Sequence record: NC_005066.1
Length of the DNA: 64,000 bases
DNA from: Escherichia phage RB49
Direction: 5' to 3' (one strand)
The notes beneath the pieces were generated by a model that worked only from the letters and a program-made list of their open reading frames with translations, was not told the origin of the DNA and did no database searches. Positions 14,982 to 63,253 of this stretch are shown one piece after another (the stretch's first letter is position 1; every line of letters starts with the position of its first letter). A program made the translations under genes and the position numbers.

Positions 14982-15014
14982 AAAGGCGGGGATAATCCCC
15001 GCCTTTTTATTTTG
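14982..15014. terminator. Bidirectional rho-independent terminator
   Basis: Hairpin aaaggcgggga-taa-tccccgccttt flanked by A- and T-runs between convergent genes 54 and the lipoprotein gene. Confidence 0.65.
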
Positions 15015-15492
15015 CTAAATCATTGCAATATTTTAGTGCCTTAGTTTGAAATTCTGCGCTGTTAAGTTCTTCATAACGGTCATAATCACCGTTTAATGCT
15101 GCCTTTCTTGCTTCTTGCTCTATCTGCATGTCAGACATGATAATACAGCGATCCCGCGCTTTCATCTTCTCAAGTTGTATAGACTCTTCTTTCTGCTTGC
15201 GCAATTCTTCTTGACGCTTCTTTTCTTCTTGTGCTTTCTCTTCCCGCGCTTCTTTGATTGCATCCTTGAACATCTGCGTTTGTGGTGCTAAACCAACTTT
15301 AACTCGATCTACGTCTCGACGTTCCATTTTAGAAATAAAGCATGATTCGATCTGATCATCACTTGCATATGCTGCTTTACATTCACGAAGCAAGAAAACC
15401 GGATCTGATTTAGCATTCATCATAGCTTCCATGTTGGCACAACCAGTAAGCATGAATACAGCCGCAAGACCAATCAGTTTAATCATTTTCAT
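15007..15492 (-). CDS. Putative lipoprotein with a charged coiled-coil region
   Basis: 161 aa; N-terminal signal with lipobox LTGC; start overlaps the stop of the upstream ADP-ribosyltransferase gene. Confidence 0.55.
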   Translation of the reverse strand: MKMIKLIGLAAVFMLTGCANMEAMMNAKSDPVFLLRECKAAYASDDQIESCFISKMERRDVDRVKVGLAPQTQMFKDAIKEAREEKAQEEKKRQEELRKQKEESIQLEKMKARDRCIIMSDMQIEQEARKAALNGDYDRYEELNSAEFQTKALKYCNDLAK

Positions 15493-21422: not shown

Positions 21423-21899
21423 TTATTTGCACCACACTGTAATTTTCTTATCATGTTGGTAGTGAATCCATCGAATATCATCTTTATCAATCATGACAGT
21501 AACATACCCATTTACTAGTGATTTGTCAAAACGGTTATGTAACAGTGCAATATATTGAAAGAATGGTTCTTTTGTATTTGAATATATTCCCTTACCATCA
21601 AACGTCATGACATTTTTGTGAACTTTAAATTCATTACGAAGAACAGCCGTCATTGTCCCGTCTTCATTAGTTTTGAGTTTTAATTCGGATTCTTTGTAAA
21701 AATATGCGTCACGGGCTTTACTTTCTTCCCCGTCTTGTACTCTTACTTCACTAGCATAATCACACTGATAGGTCTTATCTACATTTTCGATCTTTTCTTG
21801 TGTCATATCAAAAAGCGGTGCGACCTTTTTCTTGGCCGCGTGTGCTACGTTGGTCATGGACAGTGCTGCAACAACCGCAATAGCAATAATCTTCTTCAT
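21423..21899 (-). CDS. Secreted/periplasmic hypothetical protein
   Basis: 158 aa; N-terminal signal peptide MKKIIAIAVVAALSMTNVAHA. Confidence 0.55.
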   Translation of the reverse strand: MKKIIAIAVVAALSMTNVAHAAKKKVAPLFDMTQEKIENVDKTYQCDYASEVRVQDGEESKARDAYFYKESELKLKTNEDGTMTAVLRNEFKVHKNVMTFDGKGIYSNTKEPFFQYIALLHNRFDKSLVNGYVTVMIDKDDIRWIHYQHDKKITVWCK

Positions 21900-55716: not shown

Positions 55717-58656
55717 ATGGCAGATTTAAGCAGAATCCAATTTAAACGCACTAGCACTAAAGGTCGTCGACCTGATGCTGGTACGATGAATCCGGGGGAA
55801 TTGGCAATCAACCTTGCGGATCAATATCTTCTTACTAAAAATGATTTCGGTGCTATTATCAATTTAAGTTGTCCTCCGGTTTATGACCGCGATGTTACAA
55901 TGGCAGGTAAGGTTAAAGGTAATAATTATATCTTAAGTAAAACCGCTAACTATCTGGAAGATCAGACAGCGCGAGATCTTAATTACTTTGGTGCTTTCCG
56001 TACCAATGGTCTTGATGGTCTTCTCGAACTCACGCTAAACGTTCCTCATTCTTCTGGTGTTCAGCATGGTCGAGGATTTACTTTCCAGTATGGACATACT
56101 GGATCACGAGTAGAAACCTATGGCTATAATAGAGAAGGTCAAAAAGCATTTAGTTATAAAATGTATCACGAAGGCGATAAACCTACACCATCGGAATTGA
56201 ACGTTTACAGCAAACAAGAAATTGACCGTATGTTTGTTAAGAACGTTAAAATGGTTGTTCCTTCTGGTGGTGCAACCCGTGGTTATTTTAAAATTGCATC
56301 CGCAATGATCCCGCAGAGTGGTCGGATGGTGTTTCTGCGAATCTATGATGGTAATGGATATAATGTAAACTCATATGATCAAGTTGATTTTCTTGAAATT
56401 GTTATTCGTAGTGGTAATAATAACCCTAAAGGTGTTAGTATTGCTGCTTATCGTCGAAATGCTCTGAACGTTCATCAAGTATTTGCGGTTAATACTTCCG
56501 GTGATAACTACGATATCTACGTTAACTACGGTCGTTACACCGATAACGTTATTGTCGAATACGGTAAAACTAATGATGTTACTCTGACAGTACATGATGT
56601 TCCTGAATTAACTCTCGTTAAACCTTCTGTTGGTGTTACCGATGCTCGTGTTATTACAATGTTCAACACCGAAAACAAAGCCGGAACGTTGATGTTTGAT
56701 AATAACCCGCAAGGGACTTACGATATTATCAGTTTGAGTAATGCTGCTGATAATAATAGAAATTATCTGCGTAAATTCCGAAGCAAAGCTAGTGAAATGG
56801 TTTGGCATGAAACCGTTCAGGGTGCTGTATATCGTCTTGCTACTGGTGCTACAGATTCTACAGAAGTTATTAGAATTGATTCTAATAGTGCAATACCGGG
56901 TAATTATAAAGGATATGTAATTACTGGTAAAATGGAATTGCACGGTAGTGGTAATGCGATGACTTTACATCGACAGACTGGTCAAGCTGCATATATGGCG
57001 TGGTGGGATCGTCGTGATGGTAAAAACCAACGTAGTGGTTATATCGGTCATGCGGATGGTACTAGTGATGGTTTTGTGTGGCGTAATGATGTTGGTGCTA
57101 ACTCATTTGATTTGGAAGGTAGTGGACAAGTAAATTTGACTACAGGAAAAACAAAAATTGTATATACCAATGGTCAATATTATTCCGCTAACGCCGATGC
57201 ATACCGTATGATCTTTGGTAATTACGGTGCATTCTGGCGTAATGACGGCACTAAAGTTTATCTTCTGTCTACTGCTGAAAATGATAAGTATGGTGGATGG
57301 AATGCCTATCGTCCATTCATTTATGATTTAACTTCCGGTAACGTTCAATTAGGCGGTGATGGTAACGAAGAAGCATTAACGTTAGAACGTGCTTCTCGTG
57401 CCGCTCGCTTTAGTAATGACGTTTACATTAAGAAAGGGCATTTGACTTTCGACGCTGGGCGATTAAATTCCCGCGATTACTTCCGGTTTAACCATTGGGG
57501 TGATAGTAATAATGCTCGTGATAACATCTTACAGCTTGACGATAGCAAGGGTGCTCATTTTACCACTGAACGTACTTTAGCAACTGGTGCAATTAAAACT
57601 AAATTCTTCGGTGATTTGGAATCTGCTGGTCAAATTAAATGGGGTAAAGGGACCGCCACATCTACGTTTACTCTACGTGTATGGGGTAACGATAGTCGTA
57701 AACAAATATTTGAATGCGGCGATGAAAGCGGGTGGCATTGGTATACCCAACGAGCGGGGGGTCCTGGTACAAATGAGATTATATTCAATGTTAACGGGAA
57801 ATTTCAATCTCGGGATTTTGAGACTTCCGGTAATATTAAGATAACTGGTCCAGACATTGAGTTTCGTCGCACTGGTAATAAGCACATCTGGTTTAGAGAT
57901 CCGAACGGTTTAGAATTAGGTTTGATGTACTGCGATGATGCTGGTGCTATTCGCTTCCGTGGTCAGAAACAAGCCCAGACGTGGAAACTTGCGGATAAGA
58001 TGATTCATCTTGAGGCGGGGACTGTCGGCGGATCTGATAAAGGTTTGATTCGTGGTAGTGTTGCTGGTGGTAGCTGGGCTAGCTGGCGTGATCGTTCTGC
58101 CGGAATCCTCGTAGACTGTCCTCAATCAACCGATTCCGCTCATAACATCTGGAAAGCGACTCATTGGGGAAAATATCATATTGCGGCAATGGGTGTACAC
58201 GTTCCTGGCGGCACTATAGGTAATGCTATAGCACGCCTAAACGTTAATGACGCAAACTTTGAATTTAGCGCCTCCGGTGACATGTCGGCAGGACGTAACG
58301 GTAGCTTTAACGATGTGTATATTCGTTCTGATGCTCGACTTAAAATCAATAAGGAAGAGTATAAAGAGAATGCCACCGATAAAGTTAATCGCTTGACTGT
58401 ATACACCTATGATAAGGTTAAATCTTTAACCGACCGTACTGTCATTGCCCACGAAGTTGGTATTATTGCACAGGATCTTGAGAAAGAATTGCCGGAAGCA
58501 GTAACAACTTCTAAGGTTGGCGATCCTGATAAGCCAGAAGAAATCTTAACAATTTCTAACTCTGCTGTCAACGCTCTTTTAATTAAGGCGTTCCAGGAAA
58601 TGAGCGAAGAACTTAAAGCCGTTAAAGCTGAACTAGAGGAACTTAAAAAGAATTAA
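55717..58656 (+). CDS. 37: gp37 long tail fibre distal subunit with C-terminal intramolecular chaperone (peptidase S74-like) domain
   Basis: 979 aa; N-terminus IQFKRTSTKGRRPDAGTMNPGELAINL parallels T4 gp37; C-terminal YIRSDARLKINKEEY ... coiled-coil tail matches the SDxRLK auto-cleaving chaperone motif. Confidence 0.75.
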   Translation: MADLSRIQFKRTSTKGRRPDAGTMNPGELAINLADQYLLTKNDFGAIINLSCPPVYDRDVTMAGKVKGNNYILSKTANYLEDQTARDLNYFGAFRTNGLDGLLELTLNVPHSSGVQHGRGFTFQYGHTGSRVETYGYNREGQKAFSYKMYHEGDKPTPSELNVYSKQEIDRMFVKNVKMVVPSGGATRGYFKIASAMIPQSGRMVFLRIYDGNGYNVNSYDQVDFLEIVIRSGNNNPKGVSIAAYRRNALNVHQVFAVNTSGDNYDIYVNYGRYTDNVIVEYGKTNDVTLTVHDVPELTLVKPSVGVTDARVITMFNTENKAGTLMFDNNPQGTYDIISLSNAADNNRNYLRKFRSKASEMVWHETVQGAVYRLATGATDSTEVIRIDSNSAIPGNYKGYVITGKMELHGSGNAMTLHRQTGQAAYMAWWDRRDGKNQRSGYIGHADGTSDGFVWRNDVGANSFDLEGSGQVNLTTGKTKIVYTNGQYYSANADAYRMIFGNYGAFWRNDGTKVYLLSTAENDKYGGWNAYRPFIYDLTSGNVQLGGDGNEEALTLERASRAARFSNDVYIKKGHLTFDAGRLNSRDYFRFNHWGDSNNARDNILQLDDSKGAHFTTERTLATGAIKTKFFGDLESAGQIKWGKGTATSTFTLRVWGNDSRKQIFECGDESGWHWYTQRAGGPGTNEIIFNVNGKFQSRDFETSGNIKITGPDIEFRRTGNKHIWFRDPNGLELGLMYCDDAGAIRFRGQKQAQTWKLADKMIHLEAGTVGGSDKGLIRGSVAGGSWASWRDRSAGILVDCPQSTDSAHNIWKATHWGKYHIAAMGVHVPGGTIGNAIARLNVNDANFEFSASGDMSAGRNGSFNDVYIRSDARLKINKEEYKENATDKVNRLTVYTYDKVKSLTDRTVIAHEVGIIAQDLEKELPEAVTTSKVGDPDKPEEILTISNSAVNALLIKAFQEMSEELKAVKAELEELKKN

Positions 58657-59662: not shown

Positions 59663-59911
59663 TTATTGGCGCATAGAAGCCCCTGAATCGCATTTTGACG
59701 CTGTATGATGAAAACAGGTAGCGTACCAGTCATCGGCTTGTTTGTCTTCGTCAGAAAACGCGTAATTTCGTTGTATGCCGTTTTCTACTTTGACAAGTGC
59801 AATAGCTGTTTCTGGAAGATCAATCAATCGGACAAAATCACCATCTTCCCACTCTACACGAGCAATATCATAGCCCATCTCAAAGTATACAATCGCTTGT
59901 TCTAATTTCAT
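59663..59911 (-). CDS. Hypothetical protein
   Basis: 82 aa ORF. Confidence 0.45.
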   Translation of the reverse strand: MKLEQAIVYFEMGYDIARVEWEDGDFVRLIDLPETAIALVKVENGIQRNYAFSDEDKQADDWYATCFHHTASKCDSGASMRQ

Positions 59912-60237
59912 TCTGGAAACTTCCCGTAAACATTCTCTGCCAGCTTACGTGCATCTTTTACAATATCTTTCATATAATGACTATAATTTTTAGCTAGATC
60001 AATGATGCAATCAACAAAGAAGTAATAGCGTCGCAGTGCTACCAGCTCAACATCTTCAAGATGACCATTTTCTCCAATCGCTGAAATATGTTTAAATTCC
60101 TTTCGGATCGCGTCCATCGCTACATTAACTTCTTTTATAATATCTTTCGTATTATATGCACCTCGACTAATCAAAATTTTGGTTAGGTCTTCTGCTTTTT
60201 CATGAAAGTTGTCAATTTCAAACTCGATCATAATCAC
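59908..60237 (-). CDS. Hypothetical protein, paralogue of 60346..60678
   Basis: 109 aa; C-terminal ENVYGKF parallels ENIFGKF in the next gene. Confidence 0.45.
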   Translation of the reverse strand: MIMIEFEIDNFHEKAEDLTKILISRGAYNTKDIIKEVNVAMDAIRKEFKHISAIGENGHLEDVELVALRRYYFFVDCIIDLAKNYSHYMKDIVKDARKLAENVYGKFPE

Positions 60238-60345: not shown

Positions 60346-60678
60346 TCAAAATTTACCGAAAATATTCTCTGTCATAATTCTTGCTTCGTCGATTATTTTC
60401 GTCATGTTCATGGTGTAGTTATGACCATTTAGTGCCTTAATAACAACGAGCAAGGAATCTAAAAACACTCGATACCGGGTATATTCTACGCTATTTGTGA
60501 ATACCGATGTTTTCTCTACTTTATCGATCAGATAGCCTAAAGCCGATAGCGCCTCGTTTACTTCCCTTGTTACTTTATCGGCGCTAAACAACACCGGATA
60601 AAGACGCGGTGTGATTAACCGCGCTGCCTCTTTCAATTCGGTCGCTTTCCATGATTCATATTTGTCATAGTTAAACAT
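60346..60678 (-). CDS. Hypothetical protein, paralogue of 59908..60237
   Basis: 110 aa ORF. Confidence 0.45.
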   Translation of the reverse strand: MFNYDKYESWKATELKEAARLITPRLYPVLFSADKVTREVNEALSALGYLIDKVEKTSVFTNSVEYTRYRVFLDSLLVVIKALNGHNYTMNMTKIIDEARIMTENIFGKF

Positions 60679-60690
60679 TGTATAGTCCCC

Positions 60691-61023
60691 TTACAGATGA
60701 AAACCTGTTACGATCACCGCATCGATCATACCGCTAGGAATAAACGGTTCACCCTCTTTTATTTCAACTTTGAATTGATGCCATTTCGCTAATACTTCTT
60801 CCGGTACACCCAGCGATTCGGCGTCTGCTTTAGTTTCATCCATAATCCAACTAGGCTGCATGAGAGCATAGTTTACATAGTCCATTTCTGGGGTCATGTC
60901 ATCAATGTTAATATATTTGCAGTTGACGCGTTTCAGAATTTCAAATTCTTTATTGTCAACCTGTACCATGTATAATTCAGTAGTTTCTGGAATCAGTTCC
61001 CACACAATCAGTACATTTTTCAT
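60691..61023 (-). CDS. Hypothetical protein
   Basis: 110 aa ORF. Confidence 0.45.
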   Translation of the reverse strand: MKNVLIVWELIPETTELYMVQVDNKEFEILKRVNCKYINIDDMTPEMDYVNYALMQPSWIMDETKADAESLGVPEEVLAKWHQFKVEIKEGEPFIPSGMIDAVIVTGFHL

Positions 61024-61625: not shown

Positions 61626-61913
61626 TTATTTTCGGTTGTGGTCACGATATGTTTTAAAATATCCCTCGTACCACGGTAAAATATCTGGATTTTTACCACT
61701 ATACAGACCTTTAACCATCATGTCAATAAGGCCATCTGGTGTTTGATAGTTTCCAGCTTTTATAAGCTCTCTGATTAAAATCTCTCTGTATATGTCTTTC
61801 GGATCTTCGTAATCAACTTGTATTGTGGTTGTGGTCTCATTCAATTTGGTTTCTGGAGTATCTCGCATCGCATCCCACCAATCTTTTGTGATCTTCATGT
61901 TATTGAATTGCAT
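61626..61913 (-). CDS. Hypothetical protein
   Basis: 95 aa ORF. Confidence 0.45.
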   Translation of the reverse strand: MQFNNMKITKDWWDAMRDTPETKLNETTTTIQVDYEDPKDIYREILIRELIKAGNYQTPDGLIDMMVKGLYSGKNPDILPWYEGYFKTYRDHNRK

Positions 61914-61924
61914 AATTTAACCTC

Positions 61925-62683
61925 TTACTTGCAAACGTATTGATCTACATCAATTGCGCCACCGAATGTAGGATGACGTTTTTCGAATCGAATAGTTCCG
62001 TCGTTTGGTTCGAAAACGGAGTATTCATATAGATCTTTCTTGCCAACATTCTTATAAAACCCGCCTTTAGTCATAACGGTTTCTTGTACGTTTGCTTTGT
62101 GTACGTTGTATTCATCAATGTATACAAAATCAACCATCTTCCCATTTTTAATGGTTACTTTAAGATCTCCTGGTTGGTTTCCATATTTTGCATACAGTGG
62201 AGCTTCTTTAATTTTGGTGGAAATTCCATCTTTCATACTCCACTCATAACGAACGGTGCATTGATAGGTAAAAGTTTCGACCTTCGGTTCTTCCACCACT
62301 TTTTCTTCCTGTTTCGGTTGTTCTTCTTCAACCTTCGCAGAAGTCTCTGAATCGCTTTCTGACGCGGTTTCTTCTTTAGGTAATACATTCATCAAGTTTT
62401 GGATTTGAGCGTTGTATACAGCCTCCAGTGGCTGAATCTGCCCGATATTGATCATTGTATCACGAACAGTTTTATTCCAGTTGCGTTGCTCTTGTTTAAG
62501 CGACGGGTCAATCTTAACAGCCTTAACATATACTTCATGAAGTTTAGAATCAAGTGCGGAGATAGACTCATTAGCACAAATAAACTTCTCTGATTTGGTA
62601 GTAGCTTTAGCGCAATCAAAGGACGCAGCGTTAGCACCGAAAGCAGTAGCAGAAAGAACGATAGCAGCGATAATGTTTTTCAT
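61925..62683 (-). CDS. Secreted LprI-like (DUF1311) protein with Cys-containing C-terminal beta domain
   Basis: 252 aa; signal peptide MKNIIAAIVLSATAFGANA; FDCAKATTKSEKFICANESISALDSKLHEVY ... QRNWNKTVRD matches the DUF1311 pattern. Confidence 0.5.
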   Translation of the reverse strand: MKNIIAAIVLSATAFGANAASFDCAKATTKSEKFICANESISALDSKLHEVYVKAVKIDPSLKQEQRNWNKTVRDTMINIGQIQPLEAVYNAQIQNLMNVLPKEETASESDSETSAKVEEEQPKQEEKVVEEPKVETFTYQCTVRYEWSMKDGISTKIKEAPLYAKYGNQPGDLKVTIKNGKMVDFVYIDEYNVHKANVQETVMTKGGFYKNVGKKDLYEYSVFEPNDGTIRFEKRHPTFGGAIDVDQYVCK

Positions 62684-62746
62684 AATATATTCCTCATTGT
62701 TTTGTCTTGATGGGAGTATCTTACTACTCCCTTAATCCGGTGTCAA
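62684..62746 (-). promoter_or_regulatory. Early promoter cassette, GGGAGTA class
   Basis: TTGACA-17 bp-TAAGAT with GGGAGTAGTAAGATACTCCC inverted repeat. Confidence 0.5.
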
Positions 62747-62909: not shown

Positions 62910-62969
62910 TTTGATTCTCCTTCGTTGTCTTGATGAGTTTAGTATAGGGGATCGCCGATCCCCTGTCAA
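62910..62969 (-). promoter_or_regulatory. Early promoter cassette with palindromic spacer
   Basis: TTGACA-GGGGATCGGCGATCCCC-TATACT. Confidence 0.6.
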
Positions 62970-63192: not shown

Positions 63193-63253
63193 GTGATTCT
63201 CCTTCTTTCGTTTGGTATGGGAGTATAATACTACTCCCATTTCTTTACGTCAA
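63193..63253 (-). promoter_or_regulatory. Early promoter cassette, GGGAGTA class
   Basis: TTGACg ... GGGAGTAGTATTATACTCCC ... leader. Confidence 0.5.

Follow-up and report, generated by a model that had tools for sequence, protein, structure and literature searches.

A predicted periplasmic DUF1311 protein with an exchangeable C-terminal beta-barrel in Krischviruses and a lambdoid prophage

Why would a T4-like coliphage export a small protein of a family named for lysozyme inhibition, and against what would that protein act? The gene that raises this question lies in a 64,000-nucleotide stretch of DNA (hereafter the window) from a Krischvirus (RB49-like), a T4-like coliphage. The original prediction described its product as a secreted, LprI-like protein that could inhibit a lysozyme, such as that of a superinfecting phage tail; it overlooked the division of the gene into a constant N-terminal module and a variable C-terminal cassette. 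The 252-residue reading frame is not a chance one, as is evident from its full-length match to PHROG 14799 (E 1.8e-156), its presence, intact, in essentially every Krischvirus record (about 58 records), and a dN/dS of 0.02 to 0.19 in the N-terminal module. The product is identical at the amino acid level (100%) to WNA14899.1 of phage MIZ4, and the three PHROG families involved in this analysis are all annotated "unknown function." The features of the gene and its surroundings are as follows.

61925 to 62683, minus strand: complete coding sequence of 252 residues, comprising signal peptide, DUF1311 module, linker, and beta-barrel (from the open reading frame list)
62627 to 62683, minus strand: predicted signal peptide, residues 1 to 19, MKNIIAAIVLSATAFGANA with cleavage before A, signal peptidase I type without a lipobox (hydropathy and AxA rule, heuristic)
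62375 to 62626, minus strand: constant DUF1311/LprI-type helical module, residues 20 to 103, with Cys24 and Cys36
62279 to 62374, minus strand: acidic E/K/P-rich linker, residues 104 to 135, predicted to be disordered (composition; pLDDT below 50)
61925 to 62278, minus strand: variable C-terminal beta-barrel, type A, residues 136 to 252, bracketed by Cys142 and Cys251 (model pLDDT 85 to 91)
62276 to 62313, minus strand: recombination breakpoints within the linker, nt 371 to 408 of the gene (drop in DNA identity)
61851 to 61929, minus strand: 3' homology arm, in which the stop codon and an 11-nt spacer are joined to the ~21 opening codons of the downstream gene (blastn)
61626 to 61913, minus strand: downstream 95-residue gene, PHROG 15915 (function unknown), which exists in two forms (PHROG match)
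62691 to 62695, minus strand: Shine-Dalgarno sequence GAGGA, 8 nt 5' of the ATG (read from the sequence)
62712 to 62746, minus strand: predicted PeSL-type early promoter with -35 TTGACA (62741 to 62746), a 17-nt spacer, and -10 TAAGAT (62718 to 62723) (promoter scan, 10 of 12 matches)

The N-terminal half of the protein is much as had been anticipated. An AxA-type leader without a lipobox is present and is predicted to direct export; its pattern of MK, a hydrophobic stretch, and ANA followed by A is compatible, on a heuristic reading, with cleavage by signal peptidase I, and its pLDDT in the structural model falls below 50, as is expected of a cleaved leader. The DUF1311-type string FDCAKA...EKFICAN...LDSKL...QRNW is found in the protein, and Pfam assigns PF07007 above the curated cutoff (26.0 versus 22 bits, E 1.3e-5), with an alignment limited to residues 24 to 76 and to profile positions 1 to 71 of 106, about two thirds of the profile. 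The modeled helical-bundle fold of this module agrees with 3gi7, a solved structure of a DUF1311 protein. Cys24 and Cys36 are invariant across all homologs and presumably form a disulfide within the module.

Other secreted PF07007 proteins, among them the T6SS immunity protein Etsi4 of EHEC and the putative immunity proteins with an LprI domain in Pantoea and Salmonella Dublin, share with this protein a signal peptide, a helical module, and a Cys pair. They are periplasmic, and the family has a record of neutralizing periplasm-acting cell-wall toxins: Etsi4, itself a DUF1311 protein, saves cells from the periplasm-acting T6SS toxin Etse4 (PMC12981562), and LprI-domain proteins with signal peptides adjoin lysozyme-like or LysM T6SS effectors (PMC9796082, PMC8867033, PMC12135965). 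Unlike the PF07007 proteins of T6SS islands, however, the protein described here is phage-borne, is fused to a polymorphic beta-barrel, and has no adjacent effector gene.

The C-terminal domain is where homologs diverge. The Cys-bracketed, beta-rich domain of the original prediction was recovered as a barrel of about 10 predicted strands (residues 135 to 251, pLDDT 85 to 91) framed by Cys142 and Cys251. Whereas the N-terminal module averages 97.4% identity across homologs, the barrel averages 34.7%, and its sequences fall into at least five types (A to E, with type A in this window) that are 15 to 50% identical to one another. Only Cys142, Cys251, and a single Gly are invariant across the types, and the two cysteines presumably form a disulfide that clamps the barrel. 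Models of a type A and a type E protein are both two-domain and have the same fold neighbors. Among 1.8 billion representative proteins the barrel is a near-orphan whose only genuine relative was a type C allele; three further short matches in that set fell in internally repetitive proteins and were judged spurious. The full-length protein has no sequence match in the PDB at E ≤ 10, and at the same threshold Pfam gave no barrel match, either for the whole protein, searched for MliC/PliC, or for 12 barrel variants. NCBIfam returned signal-peptide noise only. The PADLOC defense profiles gave no meaningful match; a ZorC match in the linker region (E 0.004) was taken as compositional. The predicted fold of the barrel is generic and uninformative as to its ligand.

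The boundary between the two halves is sharp at the DNA level. Identity of 94 to 98% ends at nt 371, 381, 402, or 408 of the gene, depending on the partner compared, and then resumes downstream, where the 3' arm is 82% shared with the prophage alleles (blastn against L007 and L008). These prophages are lambdoid, ~35 kb in length, and inserted in E. coli hicB; they carry an intact copy of the gene and are present in 26 of 5,426 E. coli genomes. Barrel types B, D, and E are common to Krischvirus contexts and hicB prophages, and dS in the N-terminal module is equal within and between the Krischvirus and prophage lineages. The 3' half of the gene thus acts as an exchangeable cassette, for which homologous recombination could use the ~370- to 410-bp constant module at one end and, at the other, the short arm that spans the stop codon and part of the downstream gene; under 50 bp of homology is enough for recombination of the T4 type (PMC2839356). 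By this route barrels would move among Krischviruses and between Krischviruses and the hicB lambdoid prophage. Repeated recombination could also be a partial cause, besides function, of the constancy of the N-terminal module.

The prophages also retain a relic of the Krischvirus downstream gene, the reading frame MQFNSMKITQKWWDAMKANHQNDIN followed by a stop, which in the L022 prophage is interrupted by an in-frame stop; the presence in the prophage of a truncated relic of a phage gene reveals the direction of transfer. The barrel-encoding gene is the last one before truncated hicB and is followed on its 3' side by a strong terminator-like hairpin and T-run. A promoter-like site of the prophage copy is weak (9 of 12 matches), and promoter counts there were not above those of a shuffled control.

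In the window, the predicted promoter has every element by which PeSLs are defined (PMC2839356): an AT-rich tract, sigma-70 -35 and -10 boxes, a stem-loop at or over the -10 box, and a Shine-Dalgarno sequence. The hairpin GGGAGTA/TACTCCC (62712 to 62731) encloses the -10 box. The accessory region around the gene includes a Tad2-like anti-defense gene. In its hyperplastic setting and its sigma-70 promoter with a stem-loop -10 box, the locus resembles the PeSL and ORFan cassettes of RB49 and phi1 (Arbiol et al. 2010; Comeau et al. 2014). In those cassettes, however, whole reading frames are shuffled between intergenic elements, whereas here the breakpoint lies in the coding sequence of the linker, so that the domain alone is exchanged, and the exchange extends to a temperate phage.

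The family name suggests lysozyme as a target. If the protein were an analog of T4 Spackle or a true lysozyme inhibitor, it would bind gp5 of superinfecting T-even-type phages, with the barrel plugging the active site in the manner of MliC, PliC, or ACP. The protein is predicted to be periplasmic and expressed early, and Spackle (gp61.3), likewise a small early periplasmic phage protein, provides a mechanistic precedent in that it neutralizes the incoming tail lysozyme (PMC7677548). Krischviruses have gp5 but no detectable Spackle: a tblastn search with a verified T4 Spackle query against the window, L001, L011, and L012 yielded only noise inside gene 41. Because the endolysin of Krischviruses carries a peptidase-type annotation, inhibition of lysozyme would be no obstacle to the phage's own lysis. 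In M. tuberculosis LprI (Rv1541c), moreover, a DUF1311 module is joined to a second small beta-barrel domain, MliC, and this separate domain suffices for lysozyme resistance (PMC7933661). Like MliC, PliC, PhiA, and ACP inhibitors, which are small up-and-down beta-barrels of about 90 to 110 residues, the barrel here has cysteines near its first and last strands, as does E. coli MliC, which begins ...YQC and ends ...NNC.

The resemblance does not evidently go beyond that generic class of predicted fold. Rv1541c is a lipoprotein with a true MliC domain (PF09864), whereas the protein here lacks a lipobox, and neither Pfam, hhalign, nor Foldseek gave it an MliC signal: the barrel alignment, compared by hhalign with verified MliC/PliC sequences, scored a probability of 0.3%, and in the fold comparison Cap15, designed barrels, FABPs, and outer-membrane proteins matched the modeled barrel as well as MliC/PliC did. 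The inhibitory motifs SxSGAxY and WxKG, conserved in three solved MliC/PliC homologs, are not apparent in the barrels. The phage's own gp5 was rejected as the barrel target, as its identity stays at 99% or above throughout the 58 Krischvirus records, against at least five types of barrel; the polymorphism does not follow gp5, which argues against the barrel as a gp5-binding part. ScwA, which consists of DUF1311 only, confers no lysozyme protection (PMC7933661), and no experiment links PF07007 directly to the inhibition of lysozyme. Spackle is unrelated in sequence to the Krischvirus protein and shows no comparable constant/variable split, with ~897 of 927 records covering at least 80% of the query. 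In Marfavirus a DUF1311 fusion coexists with Spackle, so one does not simply stand in for the other, and the lack of Spackle in Krischviruses is weakly informative. That lack and the rescue by Etsi4 both favor the original prediction, but circumstantially. In the literature on LprI with prophages or superinfection exclusion, LprI was absent from the top-ranked papers. What we retain is a DUF1311/LprI-family protein that is predicted to be exported by Sec and to carry a beta domain bracketed by cysteines; we do not retain the inhibitor claim, a reading that derives mostly from the family name and that we regard as unlikely.

Three further explanations were considered. The barrel might bind a host envelope component and mask a receptor or entry route, as T5 Llp and Cor do, thereby blocking secondary infection and the inactivation of progeny on debris; T5 Llp is a precedent for exclusion through receptor blocking (PMC9586334). 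Export, early expression, and retention by the prophage as an end gene would suit such a role, and the polymorphism could fit different receptors. Barrel type nonetheless does not track gp37, the adhesin of the phage itself: the closest tips (92% and 90%) occur where the barrel is not of type A, among phages that share an identical type A barrel the tips range from 87% down to 49%, and MIZ4 has a gp37 that is 42% identical overall together with a separate gp38. Masking of the phage's own receptor was accordingly rejected, barrel type showing no covariation with gp37 tip or gp38. Lacking a lipobox, the protein does not belong with Llp and Cor among the outer-membrane lipoproteins. The conservation of E. 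coli envelope proteins on their periplasmic side fits poorly with at least five alleles, and masking in general seems to us quite improbable. Slightly more doubtful still is a ScwA-like modulator of host cell-wall enzymes, in which DUF1311 would bind or stabilize a lytic transglycosylase such as MltD and so tune the turnover of peptidoglycan in the infected cell, for instance lysis timing or lysis inhibition. ScwA is a periplasmic, DUF1311-only protein that raises MltD levels and whose overproduction leads to lysis (PMC7933661); an invariant N-terminal module suits an invariant host partner, and holin t lies ~2 kb from the gene. This explanation, however, leaves the polymorphic barrel unaccounted for, the DUF1311 domain of ScwA is C-terminal in a different architecture (PMC7933661), a lysis-promoting factor would be costly for lysogens to keep, and control of lysis is already in the hands of the phage's rI and holin T.

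A constant N-terminus, a variable C-terminus, and a sharp breakpoint between them are also the layout of a polymorphic secreted toxin, and the gene directly downstream, which varies too, would then encode the cognate immunity protein. That downstream gene has two forms only, form 1 with barrel types A and D and form 2 with types B, C, and E, and hence no one-to-one fit to barrel type. In the prophages the barrel gene is intact while the supposed partner is reduced to a decaying 25-codon relic. The downstream 95-residue protein has no Pfam match, and signal-peptide features were not found in its sequence; the barrels, as noted, are also without a Pfam match. The pairing was rejected on the absence of covariation and the relic in prophages, and we consider it scarcely credible; the downstream gene is linked to the cassette and is not a cognate partner.

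The reading that we favor, tentatively and at somewhat below even chances for its functional step, which we infer, is that the protein is an early periplasmic neutralizer of incoming envelope-attacking proteins in which the barrel provides specificity. That it is a periplasmic protective factor of some kind is probable: the predicted early sigma-70 promoter, the predicted export, and the position as an apparently stand-alone end gene of the prophage all fit a protective or exclusion role in the periplasm. Early expression and Sec export would yield a soluble two-module protein that binds and neutralizes envelope attackers arriving from outside, candidates being entry-associated or peptidoglycan-degrading proteins of competing phages and bacteriocin or T6SS-type effectors, with the result that the infected cell or the lysogen is protected. 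The constant DUF1311 module would supply a conserved activity or anchoring, and the barrel, through the flexible acidic linker, allele-specific recognition of a target that is presumed to be neither the genus's own gp5 lysozyme nor the phage's own receptor. ScwA, for its part, regulates a host lytic transglycosylase and not foreign enzymes (PMC7933661), an observation that runs against a neutralizing role.

We think it rather unlikely, though worth stating, that this is the first polymorphic protein for exclusion or immunity in the periplasm to be described from phages, with a universal DUF1311 scaffold and a small repertoire of interchangeable disulfide-clamped recognition barrels under balancing selection and homologous recombination between virulent T4-type phages and a temperate prophage that share a host. 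If so, phages would share a pool of "specificity cassettes" for inter-phage and inter-bacterial warfare, with a logic like that behind the polymorphism of colicin immunity or CDI, here serving defense in the periplasm. It is usual to regard virulent T4-type and temperate phages as drawing on separate gene pools; at this locus half a gene has passed between the two recently and repeatedly. If the barrels set competitor exclusion, their alleles would predict which phages can coinfect or superinfect, which would bear on the design of therapy cocktails, given that Krischviruses, phi1 and JSE among them, are candidates for therapeutic use. The automatic label "Lysozyme inhibitor LprI family protein," which is attached to all of these genes, exceeds the DUF1311 evidence, and the near-invariant N-terminal module offers a handle for learning what DUF1311, a widespread domain, binds.

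A similar architecture occurs in PHROG 4675, whose members are DUF1311 fusion proteins from Klebsiella Marfavirus, Aeromonas Ceceduovirus, and the lambdoid phage ev099. As here, these proteins are phage-borne, lie in accessory regions, and are 230 to 250 residues long, with a signal peptide, an "ASFDCxKA...E..IC...L..LD" module, a linker, and a C-terminal domain with a Cys pair. That C-terminal domain is common to the members of PHROG 4675 but unrelated in sequence to the barrels described here, and their N-terminal modules are just 37 to 49% identical to the one in this window.

The gene under study belongs to a Krischvirus (RB49-like, Straboviridae) coliphage and lies within the block of small early genes flanked by gene 52 (topoisomerase II) and the holin gene t. 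Its features and those of its product are as follows.

62746-62718 (-): promoter TTGACA-17-TAAGAT upstream of the gene, from a promoter scan
62712-62731 (-): hairpin GGGAGTA/TACTCCC enclosing the -10 box, from the sequence
8 nt upstream of the ORF (-): Shine-Dalgarno GAGGA, from sequence reading
61925-62683 (-): DUF1311-barrel ORF, 252 aa, from the ORF list
Protein N-terminus: predicted leader MKNIIAAIVLSATAFGANA, cleaved before A at an AxA signal peptidase I site, without a lipobox
N-domain: contains Cys24 and Cys36
aa ~104-135: acidic E/K/P-rich linker, by composition
C-domain: bracketed by Cys142 and Cys251

The original prediction of a signal peptide followed by a DUF1311 motif is borne out by this leader and by a match to Pfam PF07007 (LprI/DUF1311) at 26 bits, above the curated cut-off of 22, in an alignment that pairs residues 24-76 with profile positions 1-71 of 106. 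The RB49 orthologue region (RB49ORF260c) was given the DUF1311 label in 2006 at E = 0.2 (PMC1524935), and NCBI labels the Escherichia coli homologs "lysozyme inhibitor LprI family protein." PHROG 14799, annotated "unknown function," matches the protein over its full length. The product is 100% identical to WNA14899.1 of phage MIZ4, and the DNA of the locus is 91-98% identical across 58 phage records. These data establish a real gene, kept universally in Krischvirus, that encodes an exported DUF1311 and barrel protein.

The promoter and hairpin match the published description of the PeSL (promoter-early stem-loop) elements of RB49 and phi1 (PMC2839356), on which basis early expression would be expected. 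Three further TTGACA-17-TATAxT sites (63217-63253, 62941-62969, and 61698-61726, all (-), 10-11/12 matches) look like additional PeSL elements of the RB49/phi1 kind (PMC2839356); the first overlaps the hairpin ATGGGAGTA...TACTCCCAT, and the last lies within the downstream 95-aa ORF.

The AlphaFold2 model, built from a 13-sequence alignment, places four helices at residues 30-100 (pLDDT about 70-79) and a beta domain of ~10 strands at residues 135-251 (pLDDT 85-91), joined by a disordered linker; the beta domain is in keeping with the Cys-bracketed, beta-rich C-domain originally proposed. Designed barrels, FABPs, and outer-membrane barrels score equally in structure comparison, and Foldseek found no PDB match at E ≤ 1e-3, which argues that the barrel, as modeled, is a generic fold class whose likeness to lysozyme inhibitors is real, not specific. 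Pfam searches with the whole protein and 12 barrel variants placed no family on the barrel at E ≤ 10, MliC (PF09864) included. We also used solved structures (verified seed 2f09 YdhA; homologs 3f6z and 4mir) to assemble a small MliC/PliC profile, which hhalign aligned to the barrel alignment with a probability of 0.3%, and the barrel sequences do not visibly contain the SxSGAxY and WxKG motifs conserved in these structures. MliC and the barrel do resemble each other in a "Y-x-C ... C" pattern, with the cysteines close to the first and last strands; given the Pfam, hhalign, and motif results, the barrel as an MliC-type inhibitor is unsupported.

The most distinctive property of the protein is the disparity between its two halves. 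The first ~120 residues are nearly invariant in all homologs, whereas the barrel diverges beyond recognition and keeps only its two cysteines and one glycine; mean pairwise identity is 97.4% for residues 20-103 versus 34.7% for the barrel (minimum 15%). The DNA breakpoint is abrupt and falls inside the linker: identity of 94-98% begins 5 nt before the ATG, ends at nt 371, 381, 402, or 408, and returns downstream among Krischviruses. These features demonstrate a constant/variable cassette with breakpoints in the linker. With a dN/dS of 0.02-0.19, the constant module is apparently under strong purifying selection. The barrels fall into types A (the window, RB49), B/B2, C (phi1), D, and E (JSE), and they are essentially orphans outside this family. 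Because all 11 further loci recovered from IMG/VR with the constant module carry known types, the allele set looks small and finite.

Among 5,426 complete E. coli genomes, 26 also contain the constant module, in each case as a single chromosomal copy. At all seven loci inspected, the gene is the last of a lambdoid prophage (about 35 kb, from IMG/VR contigs) that adjoins hicAB, and hicB is a truncated pseudogene in 3/3 RefSeq-annotated loci. Prophage insertion truncates hicB and leaves hicA intact, and thus a toxin gene without a complete antitoxin gene. Some strains additionally carry an IS (DDE_Tnp_1) in the prophage end region (L002 5738-6850; L002/L004 13939-15171, both E. coli hicB-prophage loci), and insQ (IS200/IS605 TnpB) lies in the flanking chromosome. 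Upstream of the prophage copy, AT-rich DNA contains only a weak promoter-like site, and a strong terminator-like hairpin lies 3' of the gene; this organization would be compatible with a moron.

Prophage barrels are of types E, D, and B, which are also found at the gene 52-holin locus of Krischvirus genomes or Krischvirus-like contigs. In the constant module, synonymous divergence is about as high between phage and prophage (0.07-0.24) as among phages (0.08-0.17) or among prophages (0.08-0.19), so that this module does not appear to separate the two lineages. The alleles are common to lytic phages and the hicB prophage, with recent transfer between them. Directly 3' of prophage alleles D and B, 25 codons of the downstream gene of Krischvirus survive as a relic (MQFNSMKITQKWWDAMKANHQNDIN and a stop), with an in-frame stop already present in one contig (L022); this relic shows transfer from T4-type phage to prophage. 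It also forms a second homology arm (about 80 bp, 82% identity), and less than 50 bp of homology suffices for T4-type recombination (PMC2839356), so a Krischvirus infecting a hicB-prophage lysogen could swap barrels by double crossover.

Three distant relatives, from Klebsiella Marfavirus (250 aa), Aeromonas Ceceduovirus (239 aa), and lambdoid ev099 (232 aa; between ea22 and xis/int), are covered full-length by PHROG 4675. They share the leader, the "ASFDCxKA...E..IC...L..LD" module, and the linker but differ in the C-domain, which has its own Cys pair. The DUF1311 module thus seems to serve as a conserved N-terminal carrier for diverse, putatively disulfide-bonded periplasmic phage domains.

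Family membership is a poor guide to lysozyme inhibition. Mycobacterium tuberculosis LprI has an MliC domain besides PF07007, and MliC alone suffices for lysozyme resistance; the "lysozyme inhibitor" name of PF07007 lacks experimental evidence according to the same study, in which periplasmic, DUF1311-only ScwA gave no lysozyme protection and raised levels of the lytic transglycosylase MltD (PMC7933661). Signal-peptide DUF1311 proteins recur as immunity proteins against cell-wall-targeting T6SS effectors: co-expression of EHEC Etsi4 rescues cells from Etse4, a toxin that acts in the periplasm (PMC12981562), and gene adjacency suggests an immunity role in Pantoea, Salmonella Dublin, and WHIX effector loci (PMC9796082, PMC8867033, PMC12135965). 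What the family evidence supports best is therefore antagonism or regulation of peptidoglycan-active proteins in the periplasm, rather than lysozyme inhibition per se. Our literature search found no experimental work on phage LprI-like proteins.

We tentatively suggest that the protein may act in the periplasm to neutralize incoming proteins that attack the envelope, and that its barrel may determine specificity, a possibility that falls somewhat short of even. In 58/58 Krischvirus records, gp5, the tail lysozyme of the genus, shows at least 99% identity whatever the barrel type, which argues against it as the barrel's target and weakens the originally proposed lysozyme inhibition, a role that none of the available tests supports but that may still apply to the invariant N-module, the likelier gp5 partner should gp5 be bound. 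We also rejected masking of the receptor that the phage itself uses, since barrel type does not track the adhesin: the closest gp37 tips (92% and 90%) are those of AV108 and PHB13, which have a non-A barrel, tips range from 87% down to 49% among phages with identical type-A barrels, and MIZ4, with an identical DUF1311-barrel protein, has a gp37 only 42% identical overall and a separate gp38. A toxin/immunity pair is likewise rejected, as the downstream gene (61626-61913 (-), PHROG 15915) has only two forms, does not follow barrel type, and is dispensable in prophages; a PADLOC search for known defense systems gave no match. Replacement of Spackle (sp/61.3) is a suggestive alternative, since a verified T4 Spackle query that matched 927 phage records detected nothing in the essentially complete Krischvirus genome of phi1, but Klebsiella Marfavirus PWKp18 has Spackle and a 250-aa DUF1311 fusion protein together. 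The phi1 genome has no annotated imm, and the annotation of its endolysin (ORF102) names the D-Ala-D-Ala carboxypeptidase/peptidase class, not a lysozyme; gp5 retains "tail lysozyme."

The distal tail fiber (window 55717-58656 (+) versus MIZ4 L001 12604-16191) differs despite identical DUF1311-barrel proteins: the window encodes a 979-aa gp37 with no ORF of at least 150 aa from there to the holin, and MIZ4 combines a 922-aa gp37 (42% identity) with a 260-aa gp38-type adhesin, a difference that suggests host-range determinants are exchanged as modules within the genus. Adjoining holin t, about 2 kb from the DUF1311-barrel gene, an 82-aa ORF (59663-59911 (-)) matches the Tad2-like (Thoeris anti-defense 2) domain in Pfam above the cut-off (27.9 versus 25 bits, E 3.4e-6), which suggests that this hyperplastic region carries counter-defense genes. 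Three adjacent ORFs of about 110 aa each (59908-60237, 60346-60678, and 60691-61023, (-)) have no Pfam match; the first two look paralogous, with the similar end "A(R/K)...(AE/TE)N(V/I)(Y/F)GKF," and the corresponding block of MIZ4 is one gene shorter. A simple heuristic marks a 161-aa putative lipoprotein (15007-15492 (-), leader ...LTGC) and a 158-aa putatively exported protein (21423-21899 (-), leader ending AHA before A). Three genes upstream of its DUF1311-barrel gene, MIZ4 encodes a 66-aa ORF (L001 8142-8342) whose leader (MKKMIAIALLASACTVNA...) resembles a signal peptide or that of a lipoprotein. This ORF is missing from the window, where other small ORFs take its place, a further presence/absence difference in the hyperplastic region.
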